Shown piece after piece: positions 2,696-29,714 of a DNA stretch of 64,000 bases. This DNA comes from Escherichia coli. Its GTDB lineage: Bacteria > Pseudomonadota > Gammaproteobacteria > Enterobacterales > Enterobacteriaceae. The position numbers and the translations under genes were made by a program. A model generated the notes under the pieces. The model searched no databases, was not told the DNA's origin, and saw only the letters and a list, made by a program, of their open reading frames with translations. Position 1 is the stretch's first letter. Each line of letters starts with the position of its first letter. The DNA lies in the NCBI RefSeq assembly GCF_044324875.1, contig NZ_CP172185.1; one strand, written 5' to 3'.

Positions 2696-4294
2696 TTAAC
2701 GTAACGGCATAATGGGTGTGATATGTCCATTATGCCGGGCGGGCGGCGGTTGGCTGCCCGCCAGCCATTTGGGAAAATCACATAGTGGCATCGGCTGTGC
2801 GTACAAATACCCTTGCAAAATATGGACGCCATGACGGCGCAAATATTTCGCCTGTTCTTGCGTTTCCACACCCTCCGCCACCAGTTCAATATTCAGTCTT
2901 TGCCCCAGTGCGATGATGATATCGGTCACCGTCGAGTTAACCGCGTCAGAACCTATAGCTGCGGTAAATGACTTATCAATTTTCAGCACGTCAGGACGTA
3001 ATGTTTCAAGCCAGGAAAACGAGCTGTTGCCGGTGCCGAAGTCATCAATCGCCAGTTTGACGTTTTTACGATGCAGCTCGCGGGCAATCCGATAATCAAC
3101 ATCCAGTAAGGCATCGCGTTCGGTGATTTCGAGGATCAGTTGCTGAATCGGGTGAGCGCTAAACCAGTACTGATTGAGATCTTTTATCAGCACACCACGG
3201 CGAAAATGGCTGGGTGCGACGTTAATGCCAACATGAAACTGACTACTCATTGGGAAAACATGCCGCTGACGGATGGTTTCTGCCATCACATAGCGGGTCA
3301 GTGGCACAATTAAATGATGTTCTTCCGCGATAGGAATAAACACATCCGGTGAAATCCAGCCCTGACGTGGATTGTTCCAGCGCAGCAAAATCTCTACACC
3401 AATACATTGCTGGCTGCGCGCATTAAGCAAAGGCTGGCAGAACAATTCGAACTCATGTTGCGCCAGGCCCAGATTGATCTCGCGGGAAAAGCTCATTCGG
3501 TAAGCGGTCGCCAGCCAGGCGATGTAGCCCACCAGTAAACTTAGCAGTACCGCCAGCGGTAATTGTGTTGGAAGATAGTGCCATGCCAGCGCCGTAGCCC
3601 CCGGGCCATTAACGTTAATGGTAAAAGGAAAGCGTTGCGAAGAAACCTGATAGTTTTCATTGTTTTCAGGTTGCGGAAGGGAATCTACCAGCCCATTACC
3701 ATAGAGCAAATGCCGACTGTCCACCGTCAGGCTGGCGCTACTGATTTGCGGCAGTTGTGGCTCAAGCAGCATTGCCGTCAGTAAGTCGATGTTAATCATC
3801 TCCATGACCCCAGCATTGCTACTGCTCGCTGCAGGCGTCCATTGAATCAAAACCGGACTGCCTTTAATCAGGACACGGTCGATCGTCAGGCGTAAAAGTG
3901 GTTGCGGTGCAGGAAGTTCAGCCAGAATGTCCACGACGGGCACATTGCGATAACCAAAAATGCTGGAGCAATAAAGTGTGCCGTCTTGCACCAGGCCAAT
4001 GGATCGCACAGTTTGGAGTTTTGCCGCCTGTTTACGTAATGGCAAATGGGCGACAGAGCAGGGCAGACCAATCAGCGGAAGCAAGACTTCGCTACCTGCC
4101 TGTAGGGGAAGCAGTACTTTATCTAATTCCTCTACAGCGTGATTAGCGAATTGTACTACCCGTTGTTGATTTAAGTTACGCTGTGAAATAAATCGCACGC
4201 TCAGGGTCGAAGCGAGCGTAACGAGTGCGCAAATCGTACAAACAATCATTCGATTACGGCGATAGGTTTTAATGATCCGTTGTGCTTTTTGCAT
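2696..4294 (-). CDS. pdeD: c-di-GMP phosphodiesterase PdeD (YoaD), CSS-motif periplasmic domain plus EAL domain
   Basis: ORF 2696-4324; start placed at the internal Met (MQKAQRIIK...) to give 532 aa; CSS motif (LYCSSIFGY) and EAL-domain region visible in translation. Confidence 0.88.
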   Translation of the reverse strand: MQKAQRIIKTYRRNRMIVCTICALVTLASTLSVRFISQRNLNQQRVVQFANHAVEELDKVLLPLQAGSEVLLPLIGLPCSVAHLPLRKQAAKLQTVRSIGLVQDGTLYCSSIFGYRNVPVVDILAELPAPQPLLRLTIDRVLIKGSPVLIQWTPAASSSNAGVMEMINIDLLTAMLLEPQLPQISSASLTVDSRHLLYGNGLVDSLPQPENNENYQVSSQRFPFTINVNGPGATALAWHYLPTQLPLAVLLSLLVGYIAWLATAYRMSFSREINLGLAQHEFELFCQPLLNARSQQCIGVEILLRWNNPRQGWISPDVFIPIAEEHHLIVPLTRYVMAETIRQRHVFPMSSQFHVGINVAPSHFRRGVLIKDLNQYWFSAHPIQQLILEITERDALLDVDYRIARELHRKNVKLAIDDFGTGNSSFSWLETLRPDVLKIDKSFTAAIGSDAVNSTVTDIIIALGQRLNIELVAEGVETQEQAKYLRRHGVHILQGYLYAQPMPLCDFPKWLAGSQPPPARHNGHITPIMPLR

Positions 4295-22108: not shown

Positions 22109-22816
<708 letters not shown>

Positions 22817-23083: not shown

Positions 23084-24622
23084 TTATTCAGCTGGCAGTG
23101 CTATGCGCCACGGAAGCAGTTCGCTGACCCGGTTGACCGGCCAGTCTGCTATGACGCCAAGCACATGGCGAAGGTAGCTTTCTGGATCCACGTCATTCAG
23201 TTTGCACGTCCCTATCAGGCTGTACAGTAGCGCTCCCCGCTCACCACCATGGCCAGAGCCGAAGAACAGGAAGTTTTTACGACCCAGACTTACCGCCCGC
23301 AGGGCATTTTCAGCGATGTTGTTGTCGATTTCCACCCAGCCATCGTTCGCATAGTACGTCAGTGCCGGCCACTGGTTAAGTGCGTACGCGAACGCCTTCG
23401 CCAACTCTGAGTGTCGCGACAGGGTCTTCATCTTTTCACGCAACCAGCTTTCCAGGGATTTCAACAGCGGTTTCGTTTTTCGCTGACGTTCAGCAAGCCG
23501 CTGCTCTGCCGGCATTCCCCTTATATCCGCCTCTATGGCGTACAACTGACCGATCTGCTCCAGGGCTTCTTCCGTCAGTGCTGACGGGATGCGGACGTGC
23601 ACATCGTGGATCTTTCGGCGGGCATGAGCCCAGCAGGCAGCTTCCGTTATCCCACCATTGCGATACAGCTCGTTGAACCCGGCGTACGCATCCGCTTGCA
23701 GCACACCGCTGAAGCAAGCAAGATGAGTCTGCGGATGGATGCCTTTTCTGTCCGGGCTGTAAGCGAACCACACTGCAGGTGCCAACGCTGACCCGGCATT
23801 GCGGTCATCACGAACATACGCCCACAACCGCCCGGTCTTCGTCTTCTTATTACCCGGCATCAGTACCTGGACCGGGGTATCATCGGCATGGAGTTTGCCG
23901 TCAGTCATGACATAGCCATGAAGCGCCTCTTCCAGCGGAGACAGCAGCCGGCAGCATGCATCCACCCAGCCCGACAGCAGTGAACGGCTCAGCTCCACAC
24001 CTTGCCGGCCGTATATTTCTGACTGGCGATACAGCGGGGTGTGCTCTGCATACTTCGAGGTCAGCACGCGGGCCAGCAGCCCCGGTCCGGCGATACCCCG
24101 CTCGATGGGCCGCGAAGGTGCAGGTGCCTGCACGATGGCATCGCACTGAGTACAGGCATGTTTTTCCCGTACCGTCCGGATAACCCGGAAGGCGCTACGC
24201 ATCAACTCCAGCTGTTCGGCGGTATCCTCGCCCAGATAGCTCAGTGAACCGCCGCAGTTCGGGCAGCACGGCGCCGCAGGCAACAGTCGCTTTTCGTCAC
24301 GGGGTAGTGATTCAGGGAACGGCTTACGGATGCGGGTCTGACGCAACGGACGCTGTACTGCCGGGTCATACACCCTACCAGTCAGCGTATCGCTCTCTTT
24401 CTGAAGCTGGTTCAGATCGGCTTCCATTTGTGCGATACGGCGGGAGACTTTTTCGGAACGACTGCCGAAGTTCATCCGGCGGAGTTTATCCAGCTGCGCC
24501 TGCAGATGGTCTATTTCGCGCTCCCGGTTGCTCAGCTTTTCCTGCAGGGCGTGGATCAGCGCTTCCTGTTCGGCCAGGCGCTGTTTCAGCAGGAAGATGT
24601 CGTCAGAAGAGATGTCGTTCAT
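23084..24622 (-). CDS. IS66-family transposase TnpC (orf3)
   Basis: 512-aa ORF with N-terminal coiled-coil/leucine zipper, zinc-finger-like CxxC pair and DDE region typical of IS66 TnpC. Confidence 0.9.
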
Positions 24623-24671
24623 AAGCCCGTATTTTACCGGGCTTATTCTGTGACAACCAGGATAAAGAGAT

Positions 24672-25019
24672 TTACAGCATGGTCAGGGAGGTCAGCAGCC
24701 GCTTAGGCTGTCGCCAGTCGATACCTTCCAGCAGCATCGCCAGCTGCGCCTGTGTAAGGAACACTTTGCCATCACGGGCTGACGGCCAGGCGAAGCGCCC
24801 ACGCTCCAGCCGTTTGGTCAGGAGGCACAGTCCGTCACCGGTGGACCACAGCAGTTTAACCTGACTGCCGCTGCGGCCCCGGAAAATGAAAACATGGCCG
24901 GACATGGGATCGTCTTTCAGCGCCGTCTGTACTTTCGCAGCCAGGCCGTTGAAGCCATTTCTCATATCGGTGATACCGGCAACCAGCCAAATTTTGGTCC
25001 CGGAAGGTAAAGGGATCAT
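24672..25019 (-). CDS. IS66-family accessory protein TnpB (orf2)
   Basis: 115-aa [30 protein letters not shown]...; start overlaps the tnpA stop (ATGA) as is typical. Confidence 0.88.
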
Positions 25020-25417
25020 CGCTTCAGTTCCTGTATCAGCAGAGTCAGGAGCTTTTCGCTGACATTGCCATTGAAGCGGAGCGTCCCGTGCCGGAACGTT
25101 ACCTCACAGCTGATACTGAGGGTTTCCGGGTCCTCTGCGAGCGATTCTGGCTGTTCGGCAGCTGCATCGAGAGTCACAGGAAGTAGCTGGGGGCTCTCTG
25201 AAGAAGGTAATAGCAGCTTTCCCTCGCGCCATTGTTGTCGCCATTTGAACAACAGATTGGCGTTAATGCCATTTTCAAGAGCAAGTTTTGAGATGGATAT
25301 CCCGGGTTCACAGGAGGCAGCAACGAGCTGCTGTTTAAATTCGGGAGGATAATTAGGGCAGCCTTTTCGCCTGCCGGGAGTCACATTTTTCTGCATATCT
25401 GACACTTTGGTTCCCAC
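25016..25417 (-). CDS. IS66-family accessory protein TnpA (orf1)
   Basis: 133-aa ORF upstream of tnpB within the same element. Confidence 0.85.
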   Translation of the reverse strand: MGTKVSDMQKNVTPGRRKGCPNYPPEFKQQLVAASCEPGISISKLALENGINANLLFKWRQQWREGKLLLPSSESPQLLPVTLDAAAEQPESLAEDPETLSISCEVTFRHGTLRFNGNVSEKLLTLLIQELKR

Positions 25418-25488
25418 TACTTATTTGGTGGACACCACTTTGTCTAATTCGTCAGATTCTGACCAGACGGTTCAGGCTGTACGCTTAC

Positions 25489-25496
25489 GAATAAAC
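25489..25496. repeat. Target-site duplication GAATAAAC (right copy) of the IS66-family insertion
   Basis: Identical to 23039-23046. Confidence 0.85.
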
Positions 25497-25798
25497 AAAC
25501 TGCGCCTGCCGGAATATTCGAACGTCATCTTGATAAAGGAACGCGCCCGGGAGTTTACCCACGCCTTTCCGTTATGCATGGGGCGGTCAAATATCTCGGC
25601 TACCCTGATGAACACAGTGCAGAGCCTGATCAAGTGATCCTTATCGAAGCGGGGCAGTTTGCGGTGTTCCCTCCAGAAAAGTGGCACAACATTGAAGCCA
25701 TGACTGACGATACTTATTTCAACATTGACTTCTTCGTTGCTCCTGAAGTCCTGATGGAAGGCGCGCAACAACGGAAAGTCATTCATAACGGGAAATGA
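25496..25798 (+). pseudogene. yeaR: yeaR 3' fragment (codons 20-119, DUF1971 protein), separated from its promoter and start by the IS
   Basis: In frame with the 5' fragment once one TSD copy and the IS are removed; translation QTAPAGIFERHLDKGTRPGVYPRLSVMHGAVKYLGYPDEH...HNGK; reconstituted length 119 aa. Confidence 0.85.
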
Positions 25799-25801
25799 AT
25801 C

Positions 25802-25984
25802 ATGGGCAAAGCAACGTATACCGTGACCGTCACCAATAACAGCAATGGCGTTTCTGTCGATTATGAAACAGAGACGCCGATGACTTTGCTGGTGCCAGAA
25901 GTGGCGGCTGAAGTGATAAAAGATCTGGTGAATACCGTGCGTTCTTATGACACGGAAAACGAACATGATGTTTGTGGTTGGTAA
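25802..25984 (+). CDS. yoaG: DUF1869 small protein YoaG (60 aa)
   Basis: ORF MGKATYTVTVTNNSNGVSVDYETETPMTLLVPEVAAEVIKDLVNTVRSYDTENEHDVCGW starting 4 bp after the yeaR stop. Confidence 0.85.
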   Translation: MGKATYTVTVTNNSNGVSVDYETETPMTLLVPEVAAEVIKDLVNTVRSYDTENEHDVCGW

Positions 25985-26131
25985 TTATCTCTGATCGTTG
26001 ATGGCGCAATTTCTGCGCCATCGCAAAAAAATCCTCCGTGATGCTCGTCACAAATCTTGCCCTCCCGATGTTGTGCTATGCTTTTTATCAGCGACTAACC
26101 CGCTAATGCAAAACAGATAAGTGAGGAAACA

Positions 26132-26380
26132 ATGGGCATTCTGTCATGGATTATTTTTGGGCTTATTGCCGGTATTCTGGCGAAGTGGATCATGCCAGGT
26201 AAAGATGGTGGTGGATTCTTTATGACTATCCTGCTGGGGATAGTCGGTGCCGTAGTCGGCGGATGGATCAGCACGCTGTTTGGCTTTGGTAAAGTCGATG
26301 GCTTCAATTTTGGCAGCTTCGTGGTTGCCGTTATTGGCGCGATTGTCGTGCTGTTTATCTACAGAAAGATTAAAAGTTAA
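26132..26380 (+). CDS. yeaQ: GlsB/YeaQ/YmgE-family small membrane stress protein
   Basis: 82-aa ORF with two hydrophobic helices (MGILSWIIFGLIAGILAKWIMPG...). Confidence 0.9.
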   Translation: MGILSWIIFGLIAGILAKWIMPGKDGGGFFMTILLGIVGAVVGGWISTLFGFGKVDGFNFGSFVVAVIGAIVVLFIYRKIKS

Positions 26381-26394
26381 CGCGTAAATTGCAC

Positions 26395-26426
26395 AAAGGC
26401 TGCACACAGGCAGCCTTTGCTATTTT
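26395..26426. terminator. Hairpin terminator between convergent yeaQ and yoaJ (aaaggctgc acacag gcagccttt, then T-rich)
   Basis: 9-bp inverted repeat plus T-rich tail seen in sequence. Confidence 0.5.
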
Positions 26427-26438
26427 CTAGATGTGACG

Positions 26439-26513
26439 TTACCACCATCCCAGCTCAGTGCCGAGTACGACAATAATAGCCACACCCATCATAATAATCG
26501 TTGTTTTTTTCAT
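26439..26513 (-). CDS. yoaJ: Small membrane protein YoaJ (24 aa)
   Basis: Minus-strand ORF MKKTTIIMMGVAIIVVLGTELGWW; start codon 2 nt after the yoaK stop. Confidence 0.75.
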   Translation of the reverse strand: MKKTTIIMMGVAIIVVLGTELGWW

Positions 26514-26515
26514 CT

Positions 26516-26614
26516 TTATGCTCCCGGGGCAGCATAGCCGCCAATAAAAAACCATGCTAAAAATACGACCGCTGTAATAAAGATTACAACCGGAAAAATA
26601 ATACCGATTCGCAT
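26516..26614 (-). CDS. yoaK: Small membrane protein YoaK (32 aa)
   Basis: Minus-strand ORF MRIGIIFPVVIFITAVVFLAWFFIGGYAAPGA. Confidence 0.75.
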   Translation of the reverse strand: MRIGIIFPVVIFITAVVFLAWFFIGGYAAPGA

Positions 26615-26646
26615 GTTATCACCAATCAAAAGGATGTGAATACGCC

Positions 26647-27672
26647 TCAGGAATGTAGCGCTGGATGCGCGACAAAAGGTGTTTTCTGTTTGTGTTTTTT
26701 CTCCTGATACATCGCGATATCGGCAGCATGCAGGGCACTGTCTGCATCGGTCGTTTCAGGATCGACTTCTACTATGCCAAGACTGGCACCGGGATAATAC
26801 AAATCAACATCACCTAAGTGATATTCTCCGCGTATTTGCTGCTGAATACGTTCTCGCAGAGACGAAATATCCGCATTCTCGTTGTTCAGTGAAACAACCA
26901 AAAACTCATCACCGCCGAGACGACCAATAACTTCGCCATTTTGCTGGAGCGTATTAAGGCGCTCGCCAACCTGAATGAGGAACAAATCACCACTATTATG
27001 ACCAAAACGATCGTTGATTAATTTGAAGTTATCCAGATCGATAAACGCGATCATTATCTTATGGTTAAGATGTCGGGCGAGAGAAAACAGCGTCGTCAGG
27101 TTTTCAAAAATCGCCCGCCGATTCGGTAGCCCGGTTAACGAGTCGGTATACGATTGCGCAATCAGCGCAGCATTGGCTTCGCGCAGCTGTTCAACCAGTG
27201 CCTCTTTTTGAATATATTGTGCAATCAGTCCGGCGAATAACTGTAAAACCTGTTCCGCGCGTTCACTCCACTGGCGCTTCTCACTACTGGCGGCGCAAAG
27301 CGTGCCATAGAATGATCCATCCGGTAAGTGAATTGGCGTGCTCAGAAATGTGGTGATGCCAAGATTGCGTGCCGCAATACAGTCGCCCCAACGGTCAGGG
27401 ACTTCATCGCTGAAAAAGCAGTTTTCATCAATGGCGCGTTTGCATAACGAGTAATCCCACGAGACGGTAAAATTCTCCGGGATGTGCATTTTCTGGCTGT
27501 TACGGGCAAACATAATATGCTGCAGGCGCGCTTCGACATCCACTTTGGTCAGGTAGGTTGATTCCATATCAGTGACCATTTCCAGCATCTCCAGAAGCTG
27601 TCGGACCAGACTTTCCAGTGACTGTTCTTTGGCAAGGGATTGTGAGACGCGGGCGATAATCTGATCTGACAC
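26647..27672 (-). CDS. dgcP: Diguanylate cyclase DgcP (YeaP), GAF plus GGDEF domains
   Basis: ORF 26647-27801; start assigned to GTG at 27672 (MSDQIIARVSQ...) to give 341 aa; GGDEF motif (RLGGDEFLVV) present. Confidence 0.88.
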   Translation of the reverse strand: MSDQIIARVSQSLAKEQSLESLVRQLLEMLEMVTDMESTYLTKVDVEARLQHIMFARNSQKMHIPENFTVSWDYSLCKRAIDENCFFSDEVPDRWGDCIAARNLGITTFLSTPIHLPDGSFYGTLCAASSEKRQWSERAEQVLQLFAGLIAQYIQKEALVEQLREANAALIAQSYTDSLTGLPNRRAIFENLTTLFSLARHLNHKIMIAFIDLDNFKLINDRFGHNSGDLFLIQVGERLNTLQQNGEVIGRLGGDEFLVVSLNNENADISSLRERIQQQIRGEYHLGDVDLYYPGASLGIVEVDPETTDADSALHAADIAMYQEKKHKQKTPFVAHPALHS

Positions 27673-27854
27673 GAAACAACTCCAGGATACGGCGGGTAAA
27701 TGCTGATTATTTAATCTTTGCAGGCATGATAAAACATCATCAACAAAGATGAAACAAGGCGTAATATGATTTGAGTGAATGTAATAAAAATAGTGCTGCA
27801 AAACAAAACGATACCGCGATACTCTAAGTCTGGATAAATATGTGAGATCAATAA

Positions 27855-28109
27855 ATGAAAATTATCAGTTTTGTTCTGCCTTGCTTGCTGGTCCTGGCTG
27901 GTTGTTCAACCCCTTCTCAGCCAGAAGCACCCAAACCGCCGCAGATTGGTATGGCAAATCCGGCGTCGGTCTATTGCCAGCAGAAGGGCGGGACGCTCAT
28001 TCCAGTGCAGACAGCGCAAGGGGTCAGCAACAATTGCAAATTACCGGGCGGTGAAACGATTGATGAATGGGCATTGTGGCGACGGGACCATCCGGCTGGT
28101 GAAAAATAA
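27855..28109 (+). CDS. yoaF: DUF333 lipoprotein YoaF
   Basis: 84-aa ORF with signal peptide and lipobox (LVLAGCSTP). Confidence 0.88.
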   Translation: MKIISFVLPCLLVLAGCSTPSQPEAPKPPQIGMANPASVYCQQKGGTLIPVQTAQGVSNNCKLPGGETIDEWALWRRDHPAGEK

Positions 28110-28130
28110 CCGCCGGATGCTGTACTAAAA

Positions 28131-28478
28131 TCATAAGCTACGTAGCCAGTCGGCCAGCACCAGCGCATGGTTCTGCGTGGTGTTTTTGGCTGAGTAGAGC
28201 AGGGTCAGCGGCTGTTTTTTGGCGATGTCCGCCAGCCGCTTTCCTTCTTGCTCGTGTTGCGCCAGTTCTGCAAGATATTGCTCGCGAAAGGTTGCAAAAT
28301 CGACGACTTCGCCGTGAAAGGCTTTGCGCAGTTCCGTTGACGGCGTGATTTCTTTATCCCACTCATCAAGGGCTAAATCGGTTTTTTTGATACCGCGCGG
28401 CCAGAGGCGGTCGACCAGTACGCGATATCCATCGCTCTGTTCAGCCGGATCATAAACGCGTTTGCACTGAATATTCAT
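28131..28478 (-). CDS. yeaO: DUF488 family protein YeaO
   Basis: ORF 28131-28499; start placed at MNIQCKRVYDP... to give 115 aa. Confidence 0.85.
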   Translation of the reverse strand: MNIQCKRVYDPAEQSDGYRVLVDRLWPRGIKKTDLALDEWDKEITPSTELRKAFHGEVVDFATFREQYLAELAQHEQEGKRLADIAKKQPLTLLYSAKNTTQNHALVLADWLRSL

Positions 28479-28532
28479 CGTGTTTGTTCTCCCTTCCACG
28501 CATGATTGGTCACGTCACTATAGCACCGGATA

Positions 28533-29714
28533 TTAGCGAATTTCTTTGTCTCTCCCGGCGCAAAGTCCGAAAATCGCCATCAGTAGTGAAAGTATGGCAA
28601 CACCCATCAATGGTATGGACCAGTCACCGTTAGTATCGTGTATTTTACCCATCAGCGGCGGCCCACAGGCTGCCAGCAAATACCCGACGGATTGTGCCAT
28701 CCCCGAGAGTGCCGCCGCCTGATGCGCAGAACTTGCCCGAAGACCAATGAACGTCAATCCCAGTATCATTGTTGCGCCGGAACCAAAGCCGAAAAGCAGA
28801 GTCCAGGTGATCGCGTGCGCTGGCATAAAGCAGAGCCCAACCGCGCCCACTGCGCACATCAAGGCAACGAACGCTGCAATACCACGCTGATCTTTCACAT
28901 GATGTAAGAAAAGTGGGATCAGCAAACCGGGAGCTGCTGTGGCTAGTTGCAGCAAACCATGCAGTGAACCCGCCTGTGCTTCGCTATAGCCGTGACTGAT
29001 GAGGATCGCCGGAAGCCAGCCAATAATCACGTAATAGACCAGTGAGTTGATCCCAAGAAACAATGTTACCTGCCAGGCAAGCGGAGAACGCCAGATACCC
29101 CGAGTATGTAAGGCGCGTGAGGTACTCAAATTTTCATGTTGTTGACTTCGCCACTGTGGCAGCCATAAAAAAAGAGCCAGCAGAGGAAAACACATCAGCA
29201 TGAGCAACGCGCCTTGCCAGCCAAAACCGTTCAAAGCCAGCGGCACGACCATAGCCGATCCCAGTGCCGCTGCAGCTCCCATTGTCAGGGAATATGCGCC
29301 GGTAAGTCTGGCGACGGAATGAGGGAAATCGCTTTTAATTAATCCTGGCAGTAAGACATTGCCTAATGCAATCCCACCGCCAATGACCGCTGTACCGCCA
29401 AATAAGAAGTAAGGCGAAGGGAGAGAGCGAATTGCGATGCCAGCACAGATCAAAAGTAACGCGGCAAACAGGCTACGTTCCATACCAAAACGTCGCGCCA
29501 CCGGGGCAGCCAGAGGTGAGATTAGCGCAAAGGCTAATAATGGCAGGGTGGTCAATAAGCCGGTTTGCGCCGTCGTCAGCGAGTAAGCGGAACGAATCGT
29601 ATCCAGTAACGGTGCTGCGCCGGTAAAGGTGACGCGTAATGTTGTGGCAATCATCAGAATACCAGCGATAAGGACAATCCTGTTTTTGCCGCTTAATGAA
29701 GTTGAACAGGTCAT
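28533..29714 (-). CDS. nimT: MFS transporter NimT (YeaN), 2-nitroimidazole exporter
   Basis: 393-aa 12-TM ORF; divergent from the AraC-type regulator gene nimR. Confidence 0.88.
   Translation of the reverse strand: MTCSTSLSGKNRIVLIAGILMIATTLRVTFTGAAPLLDTIRSAYSLTTAQTGLLTTLPLLAFALISPLAAPVARRFGMERSLFAALLLICAGIAIRSLPSPYFLFGGTAVIGGGIALGNVLLPGLIKSDFPHSVARLTGAYSLTMGAAAALGSAMVVPLALNGFGWQGALLMLMCFPLLALFLWLPQWRSQQHENLSTSRALHTRGIWRSPLAWQVTLFLGINSLVYYVIIGWLPAILISHGYSEAQAGSLHGLLQLATAAPGLLIPLFLHHVKDQRGIAAFVALMCAVGAVGLCFMPAHAITWTLLFGFGSGATMILGLTFIGLRASSAHQAAALSGMAQSVGYLLAACGPPLMGKIHDTNGDWSIPLMGVAILSLLMAIFGLCAGRDKEIR

Follow-up and report, generated by a model that had tools for sequence, protein, structure and literature searches.

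The interval 26439-26614 on the minus strand of the window, a stretch of 64,000 nt from the Escherichia coli contig NZ_CP172185.1, can be assigned with high confidence to two known genes of E. coli, yoaK and yoaJ, which close a dgcP-yoaK-yoaJ transcription unit. The genes are not new: both are already annotated, experimentally detected and conserved. When the minus strand is read directly, yoaK (26516..26614; 32 codons and TAA; MRIGIIFPVVIFITAVVFLAWFFIGGYAAPGA), which encodes a predicted single-pass small inner-membrane protein, opens with the ATG at 26614..26612 and closes with the TAA at 26518..26516. It is followed by yoaJ (26439..26513; 24 codons and TAA; MKKTTIIMMGVAIIVVLGTELGWW), also encoding a single-pass small inner-membrane protein, which runs from the ATG at 26513..26511 to the TAA at 26441..26439. 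The spacer between the yoaK stop and the yoaJ start (26514..26515, minus strand) is the dinucleotide AG. A first-pass annotation of this DNA had described ORFs of 32 and 24 codons lying head to tail on the minus strand with the yoaJ start 2 nt after the yoaK stop, and its coordinates, lengths, strand and spacing proved exact to the base.

The gene names given in that annotation are borne out by two NCBIfam models and by the annotation of K-12. YoaK scores 69.1 bits against NF033821 (‘YoaK family small membrane protein’; cutoff 32, E = 1.8e-19), with residues 1-32 aligning to positions 1-32, the full length of this 32-position model. YoaJ scores 60.4 bits against NF011343 (PRK14760, ‘protein YoaJ’; cutoff 54, E = 1.1e-16), with residues 1-24 aligning to all 24 positions (1-24) of the model. 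No Pfam model matched either peptide and no relative of either was found in the PDB. In K-12 MG1655, yoaK (b4676, 1878773-1878871) and yoaJ (b4675, 1878874-1878948) lie between dgcP (b1794) and the convergent yeaQ, and are separated by the same 2-nt gap. The window differs from K-12 at two positions within the genes, both synonymous: the 32 amino acids of YoaK, likewise encoded downstream of dgcP, are identical with one change at Phe12 (TTT/TTC), and the 24 amino acids of YoaJ are identical with one change at Ala12 (GCT in the window, GCG in K-12). The change in yoaJ codon 12, at window position 26478, is the sole difference within yoaJ from two aligned E. coli genomes, both of which carry GCG. 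The 176-nt two-gene stretch is present in 5,416 of 5,426 complete E. coli genomes, with coverage of at least 80% in 5,403 and identity that is always at least 95%; none of the 5,426 contains an exact match, the best identity being 99.4%. Both genes were annotated by PGAP in 29 of 30 rows sampled down the ranking of E. coli matches.

Beyond the species, a phmmer search with YoaK against 1.84 billion representative proteins returned 25 clusters at E <= 0.001, several of which are frameshifted or fused versions of the same locus, and the YoaK family is therefore narrow. A profile built from clean YoaK cores (A2) was scanned over one genome per species for 100,044 species and found 113 loci encoding relatives, of which 80 were kept. 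By record title these belong to the Enterobacteriaceae, save for two ‘Proteobacteria’ MAGs and one contig labelled Chryseobacterium. Of the 80 loci, 63 carry a homologue of yoaJ downstream of yoaK, the named genera with the pair being Escherichia, Salmonella, Citrobacter, Enterobacter, Lelliottia, Leclercia, Klebsiella, Raoultella, Kluyvera, Pseudocitrobacter, Huaxiibacter, Silvania and Pseudenterobacter. In the A2 alignment of 19 family members P8, A15, W21, F22 and A28 of YoaK are invariant and F7, G25, G26 and Y27 are at least 90% conserved; the YoaK of the window carries all of these residues, with the family motifs FP, WF and GGYA-P. The length of yoaJ is 24 codons in all 63 species, with M1, K3, T5, A12, G18, G22 and W24 invariant, and its product begins M-[KR]-K-T-T in every species, whatever its frame relative to yoaK; the G-W-W end is likewise conserved, with G22 and W24 fixed.

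Conservation of both frames across the Enterobacteriaceae had been put forward as a check on the pair, and the 63 species provide it. Mean pairwise Nei-Gojobori values were computed for these species in each of the three frames. In the coding frame of yoaK pS was 0.67 and pN 0.09 (pN/pS 0.13), while frames +1 and +2 gave pS 0.13 and pN 0.26 (pN/pS 1.99) and pS 0.09 and pN 0.27 (pN/pS 3.15), respectively. For yoaJ the coding frame gave pS 0.62 and pN 0.19 (pN/pS 0.30), frame +1 pS 0.26 and pN 0.30 (pN/pS 1.15) and frame +2 pS 0.17 and pN 0.32 (pN/pS 1.85). Variable columns are concentrated at third codon positions, with 14, 9 and 29 at positions one, two and three of yoaK and 16, 11 and 22 in yoaJ. 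Both yoaK and yoaJ are real protein-coding genes under frame-specific purifying selection.

The ratio was used frame by frame because the openness of a frame does not by itself discriminate at this locus. The codons of yoaK mostly have T at the second position, so that the +2 frame cannot form stops, and all 63 species have this frame open, even though the frame of yoaJ relative to yoaK varies among them. A longer ORF of 38 aa in the yoaJ frame (26439..26555, minus strand), starting from an upstream in-frame ATG inside yoaK, was considered and rejected: its extension is open for the same compositional reason and is not conserved.

The two peptides are strongly hydrophobic, with GRAVY values of 1.88 for YoaK and 1.22 for YoaJ. 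In both, a short basic N-terminus (M-R in YoaK, M-K-K in YoaJ) precedes a single hydrophobic stretch, for which the best 17-residue Kyte-Doolittle windows score 2.98 and 2.26, respectively; this agrees with the one predicted transmembrane helix per peptide of the first-pass annotation. The pair was reported by small-protein surveys (Hemm 2008, as described in papers that cite it), in which both proteins were detected by chromosomal tagging. YoaK-SPA has since served as a reference sample for immunoblots, the protein being uncharacterised and among the less well expressed of the small proteins originally identified (10.1101/511675). Ribosome profiling gives a measurable density on yoaK and points to an unverified effect of RyhB of about 2-fold (PMC4666370). 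A MALDI peak at m/z 2690.98 has been assigned to YoaJ (PMC6115441), for which we compute an average mass of 2691.4. Levels of YoaJ are stated to rise in cells treated with diamide (PMC12542507, citing Hemm 2010). The existence of the products is shown by published tagging, fractionation and ribosome-profiling data (10.1101/511675, PMC4597795, PMC4666370).

As regards the membrane, YoaJ is an integral protein whose association resists alkali (PMC4597795). It is predicted to be of type II (Nin-Cout), a topology which the same paper states was confirmed experimentally by Fontaine 2011 (PMC4597795), and its basic N-terminus MKK fits the positive-inside rule. YoaJ has been employed as a Nin-Cout anchor tag for periplasmic peptides, in a study that reports yields and makes no mention of toxicity (PMC7558204). 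YoaK is predicted to span the membrane once (PMC10470546) and, from Arg2 and the positive-inside rule, would be oriented like YoaJ (Nin-Cout). Both proteins have been connected with the site-2 protease RseP. YoaJ co-precipitates with RseP and is not cleaved as an HA-MBP fusion (PMC4597795). YoaJ and YoaK have been classed as ‘Class II’ RseP substrates; the purified protease cuts both in vitro, the assays in vivo do not agree with one another, and neither protein is cleaved by RseP expressed from the chromosome (PMC10470546). This intramembrane protease might contribute to the turnover of the two proteins. The functions of YoaK and YoaJ were described as unknown in 2022 (PMC9769844); the most likely role would be that of a small two-subunit membrane module acting under stress or in stationary phase.

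The gene upstream of the pair, dgcP (yeaP; 26647..27672, minus strand), encodes a GAF-GGDEF diguanylate cyclase according to Pfam and is the first gene of the dgcP-yoaK-yoaJ unit. Its stop codon (26649..26647) lies 32 nt before the ATG of yoaK. The three genes have the features of an operon, being on the same strand with gaps of 32 and 2 nt and having a hairpin only after yoaJ, and a terminator scan found no terminator-like site on the minus strand between dgcP and yoaJ. Operon calling from RNA-seq likewise places yeaP(dgcP)-yoaK-yoaJ in one unit (PMC4620388). The hairpin (26394..26419), detected by the terminator scan on the plus strand, is GC-rich with a stem of 10-11 bp and lies between yoaJ and the convergent yeaQ (26132..26380, plus strand), which encodes a membrane protein of the GlsB/YeaQ/YmgE family (NCBIfam PRK10457, Pfam PF04226) and also adjoins yoaJ in Escherichia, Citrobacter, Salmonella and Enterobacter. 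The minus-strand fold has an energy of -20.5 kcal/mol, with a weak U-tract on the yoaJ side, and the hairpin is likely to be a shared bidirectional terminator of yoaJ and yeaQ. A separate promoter for yoaK in E. coli was considered and rejected: the lone minus-strand consensus match (26640..26613) would put its -10 element over the yoaK ATG, and promoter-like matches are overall fewer than chance would give (2 against an expected 3.8). In Enterobacter, Lelliottia and Leclercia the spacer between dgcP and yoaK contains a conserved hairpin-like motif, CCCGTACACTCTACGGG (L009-L040 etc., at about 3450-3470), that is absent from Escherichia.

The association with dgcP is common without being universal, and most of the 63 loci with yoaJ have dgcP directly before yoaK. 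In Salmonella enterica subsp. arizonae and diarizonae, C. amalonaticus and C. sedlakii the gene order is yoaF-yoaK-yoaJ-yeaQ without dgcP, and one further species (L056) keeps yoaK-yoaJ without it. Both frames are intact in these species except in C. sedlakii, in which yoaJ is frameshifted. Four of the dgcP-less loci (L028 and L034 of Salmonella, L014 and L011 of Citrobacter) retain a stub of the last 45-70 nt of dgcP (at about 3430-3500), with two conserved blocks, CCTTTTGTC and CCCTGYTATYCTKG, that can be read as TTGTCR-15 nt-TATYCT. The layout of these blocks is promoter-like, with a short spacer, and they may direct transcription of the pair in dgcP-less genomes; the E. coli position equivalent to the -10 of the stub is degenerate (ATTCCT; compare window 26615-26690). 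The persistence of the pair where dgcP has been lost suggests that YoaK and YoaJ do not depend on DgcP.

YoaK can also stand alone, since a clade in Kosakonia, Pluralibacter and allies has YoaK without yoaJ. In the 16 loci of this clade (L063-L078, match 3501-3599) a YoaK-type peptide of the form MRIGIAFP[VI]LVFIVAVAFLAWF..GGYA[TN]PGS, with the tail TPGS and Gly codons of the form GGY, has nothing yoaJ-like downstream. The neighbourhoods of these genes are unrelated to one another and include yejM-like genes with ecotin, a Gate-domain protein, GNAT and LysR; several of the loci lie between a yejM-like gene (DUF3413 and sulfatase) and ecotin. A link of the solitary YoaK to cyclic di-GMP enzymes was considered and dropped, GGDEF or EAL domains being found in just 2 of the 10 neighbours examined, both on the opposite strand. 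In this sample, which was gathered by a search seeded with YoaK, yoaJ was seen only after yoaK.

Three other readings of what the pair encodes were weighed against these data. Chance yields many ORFs of this size, 73 with 20 aa or more overlapping the 3.5 kb at 25000..28500, and an ORF of such a size therefore means nothing alone; the case for yoaK and yoaJ as genes rests for this reason on identity and conservation. The notion that the two are chance ORFs in an AT-rich 3' UTR of dgcP is nevertheless refuted by the per-frame selection in 63 species and by the published detection of both proteins (10.1101/511675, PMC4597795), to which the invariant length of yoaJ and the conserved Shine-Dalgarno (SD) sequences may be added, and its probability is negligible. 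Short, hydrophobic, single-helix peptides that were included in the same RseP cleavage panel as the Hok toxins (PMC10470546) invite comparison with membrane-damaging type I toxins of the Hok or Ldr kind. We consider this highly improbable: an Rfam scan of 25800-27900 at E <= 1 gave no family, and so no antisense RNA family, there is no convincing antisense promoter, promoter-like matches being at chance level, the genes form the 3' part of a housekeeping operon, belong to the chromosomal core and keep the same place across genera, and YoaJ is tolerated as an overproduced fusion tag (PMC7558204). A third reading takes YoaK and YoaJ to be accessory subunits that tether or regulate the soluble cyclase DgcP. 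The single transcription unit in E. coli (PMC4620388) and the position of dgcP directly upstream of yoaK in most loci speak for this, but the five dgcP-less cases described above (arizonae, diarizonae, C. amalonaticus, C. sedlakii and L056) and the mixed neighbours of the solitary YoaK genes (yejM-like genes with ecotin, a Gate-domain protein, GNAT) speak against it and make it unlikely.

The junction between the two genes is tightly constrained in distance and variable in sequence. Measured between the stop of yoaK and the start of yoaJ, the spacing is 0 nt in 30 of the 63 species, +2 in 21 (the frameshifted copy of C. sedlakii included), -4 in 8, +3 in 2 and -1 in 2, with no gap outside -4..+3 nt. 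The junction strings themselves vary (TAAATG, TAAGTG, TAAAGATG, TAACGATG, ATGA, GTGA, TAATG, TGATG), amounting to 16 different strings, one of them from the frameshifted copy, at five distances in about 12 named genera with a pS of about 0.65. With synonymous divergence near saturation, the tight junction appears to be kept by selection rather than by recent common descent. The start codon of yoaJ is GTG in 13 of the 63 species.

The SD sequence of yoaJ in the window, GGGAG (26521..26525, minus strand), is 7 nt before the ATG and within the yoaK codons for Pro30-Gly31-Ala32, and its duplex with the anti-SD has an energy of -6.6 kcal/mol. Preceding yoaK is an SD-like GGTGAT (26618..26623, minus strand), 3 nt before the ATG, which complements GAUCACC of the 16S 3' end and reaches -8.8 kcal/mol against the extended anti-SD, a value that applies to those Escherichia loci whose final 32 nt upstream of the ATG are identical to the window's. 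As GGTGAT or GGTGRT the element is conserved among Escherichia, Citrobacter, Enterobacter, Lelliottia and Leclercia. Median SD energies over the species are -7.2 kcal/mol for yoaJ and -8.2 kcal/mol for yoaK, and -3.3 kcal/mol at random positions. The Gly codon in the tail of YoaK is GGR (GGG/GGA) in 56 of 62 yoaJ-bearing loci and GGY (GGC/GGT) in 15 of 16 loci that lack yoaJ. This bias is what selection for an SD inside the coding sequence would be expected to produce, and it supports, but does not prove, coupling. The comparative data fit either termination-reinitiation or tightly linked initiation.

From these sequence comparisons, we judge that translation of yoaJ is probably truly coupled to that of yoaK. 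It is also possible that the genes are adjacent without true coupling, yoaJ being initiated de novo from its own SD and the spacing reflecting compact packing of the operon. The GGGAG 7 nt upstream of the ATG would be adequate for this at -6.6 kcal/mol. The junction has no inhibitory structure: no RNA fold masking the yoaJ start was found, the predicted fold of the 121-nt junction being no more stable than those of shuffled sequences (z = -0.52); a fold of that kind would have enforced coupling. Enterobacterial operons, moreover, commonly have very short intercistronic distances. Against independent initiation, about 12 named genera keep the distance within -4..+3 nt despite turnover of the junction sequence, and GTG, the start in about a fifth of the species, is a weak codon for de novo initiation. 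Under coupling, a ribosome that finishes yoaK would stand 0-4 nt from the start codon of yoaJ, over an SD supplied by the final yoaK codons, and synthesis of YoaJ would keep pace with that of YoaK through termination-reinitiation or through local initiation driven by the SD. Both helices might then be inserted into the inner membrane jointly, oriented alike and at linked levels. A more elaborate proposal, which we offer tentatively, is that YoaK and YoaJ form an obligate coupled heteromer whose stoichiometry is fixed by reinitiation at a junction kept within 4 nt since the pair arose, with the GGR codon for Gly in the conserved Pro-Gly-Ala tail dual-coded as the SD of yoaJ and with a promoter in the dgcP stub taking over where dgcP is lost.

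Some loci depart from the usual form of the pair. Frameshifted versions were seen at L011 (3603-3625) and L015 (3501-3690) and among the proteins P0001, P0002 and P0016, which are frameshifted or fused, P0002 being a YoaK-YoaJ fusion product. In C. sedlakii NBRC 105722 a run of six A residues replaces the A7 that occupies codons 2-4 of yoaJ (26504-26510 in the window), which truncates yoaJ, and in one assembly of C. amalonaticus yoaK is frameshifted into an ORF of 62 aa. Such versions may have arisen from sequencing errors or from real slippage at the A7 and C4G3 runs. The locus labelled Chryseobacterium sp. 18061 (L076) carries YoaK of the Enterobacteriaceae type, and both its peptide and the position of its ecotin-like neighbour match those of L077, which comes from the same project and is labelled Citrobacter sp. 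18056. The Chryseobacterium label is probably wrong or the assembly contaminated.

On the far side of yeaQ the window contains a complete element of the IS66 family (23084-25488), inserted between leuE (22178-22816) and yeaR. Its three ORFs (23084-24622, 24672-25019 and 25016-25417, all on the minus strand) encode a transposase, TnpB and TnpA that score above the NCBIfam cutoffs. The insertion removes about the first 17 codons of yeaR together with its promoter, and colinearity with E. coli genomes resumes at about 25489. It is specific to this strain, possibly a Shigella-like or draft one, as no complete E. coli genome covers at least 80% of 23500-29500.

Both yoaK and yoaJ entered the K-12 annotation with the small-protein surveys of 2008-2011, and the NCBI pipeline routinely calls them. 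The pair is of use as a positive control, demonstrating that a first-pass annotation can recover genuine genes below a floor of 60 aa. What is added here is modest: the invariant 24 codons of yoaJ, the stop-to-start distance of -4..+3 nt and the codon bias of the SD inside the coding sequence, together with the retention of the pair in genomes that lack dgcP and the clade that has YoaK and no yoaJ.

Translational coupling by way of overlapping or abutting stop and start codons (ATGA, TAATG, TAAATG) is a general bacterial mechanism. With translationally coupled pairs in general yoaK and yoaJ share a stop-to-start distance of -4..+3 nt, an SD located in the upstream ORF and, in some species, a weak GTG start. 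A second comparison is with CydX (cydABX) and KdpF (kdpFABC), proteins of no more than 50 aa with a single transmembrane helix that are co-transcribed with a larger gene and have been missed by gene callers. Like YoaK and YoaJ these are small single-helix proteins encoded at the ends of E. coli operons. CydX and KdpF are, however, subunits of a complex encoded by their own operon, whereas YoaK and YoaJ persist in genomes without dgcP.
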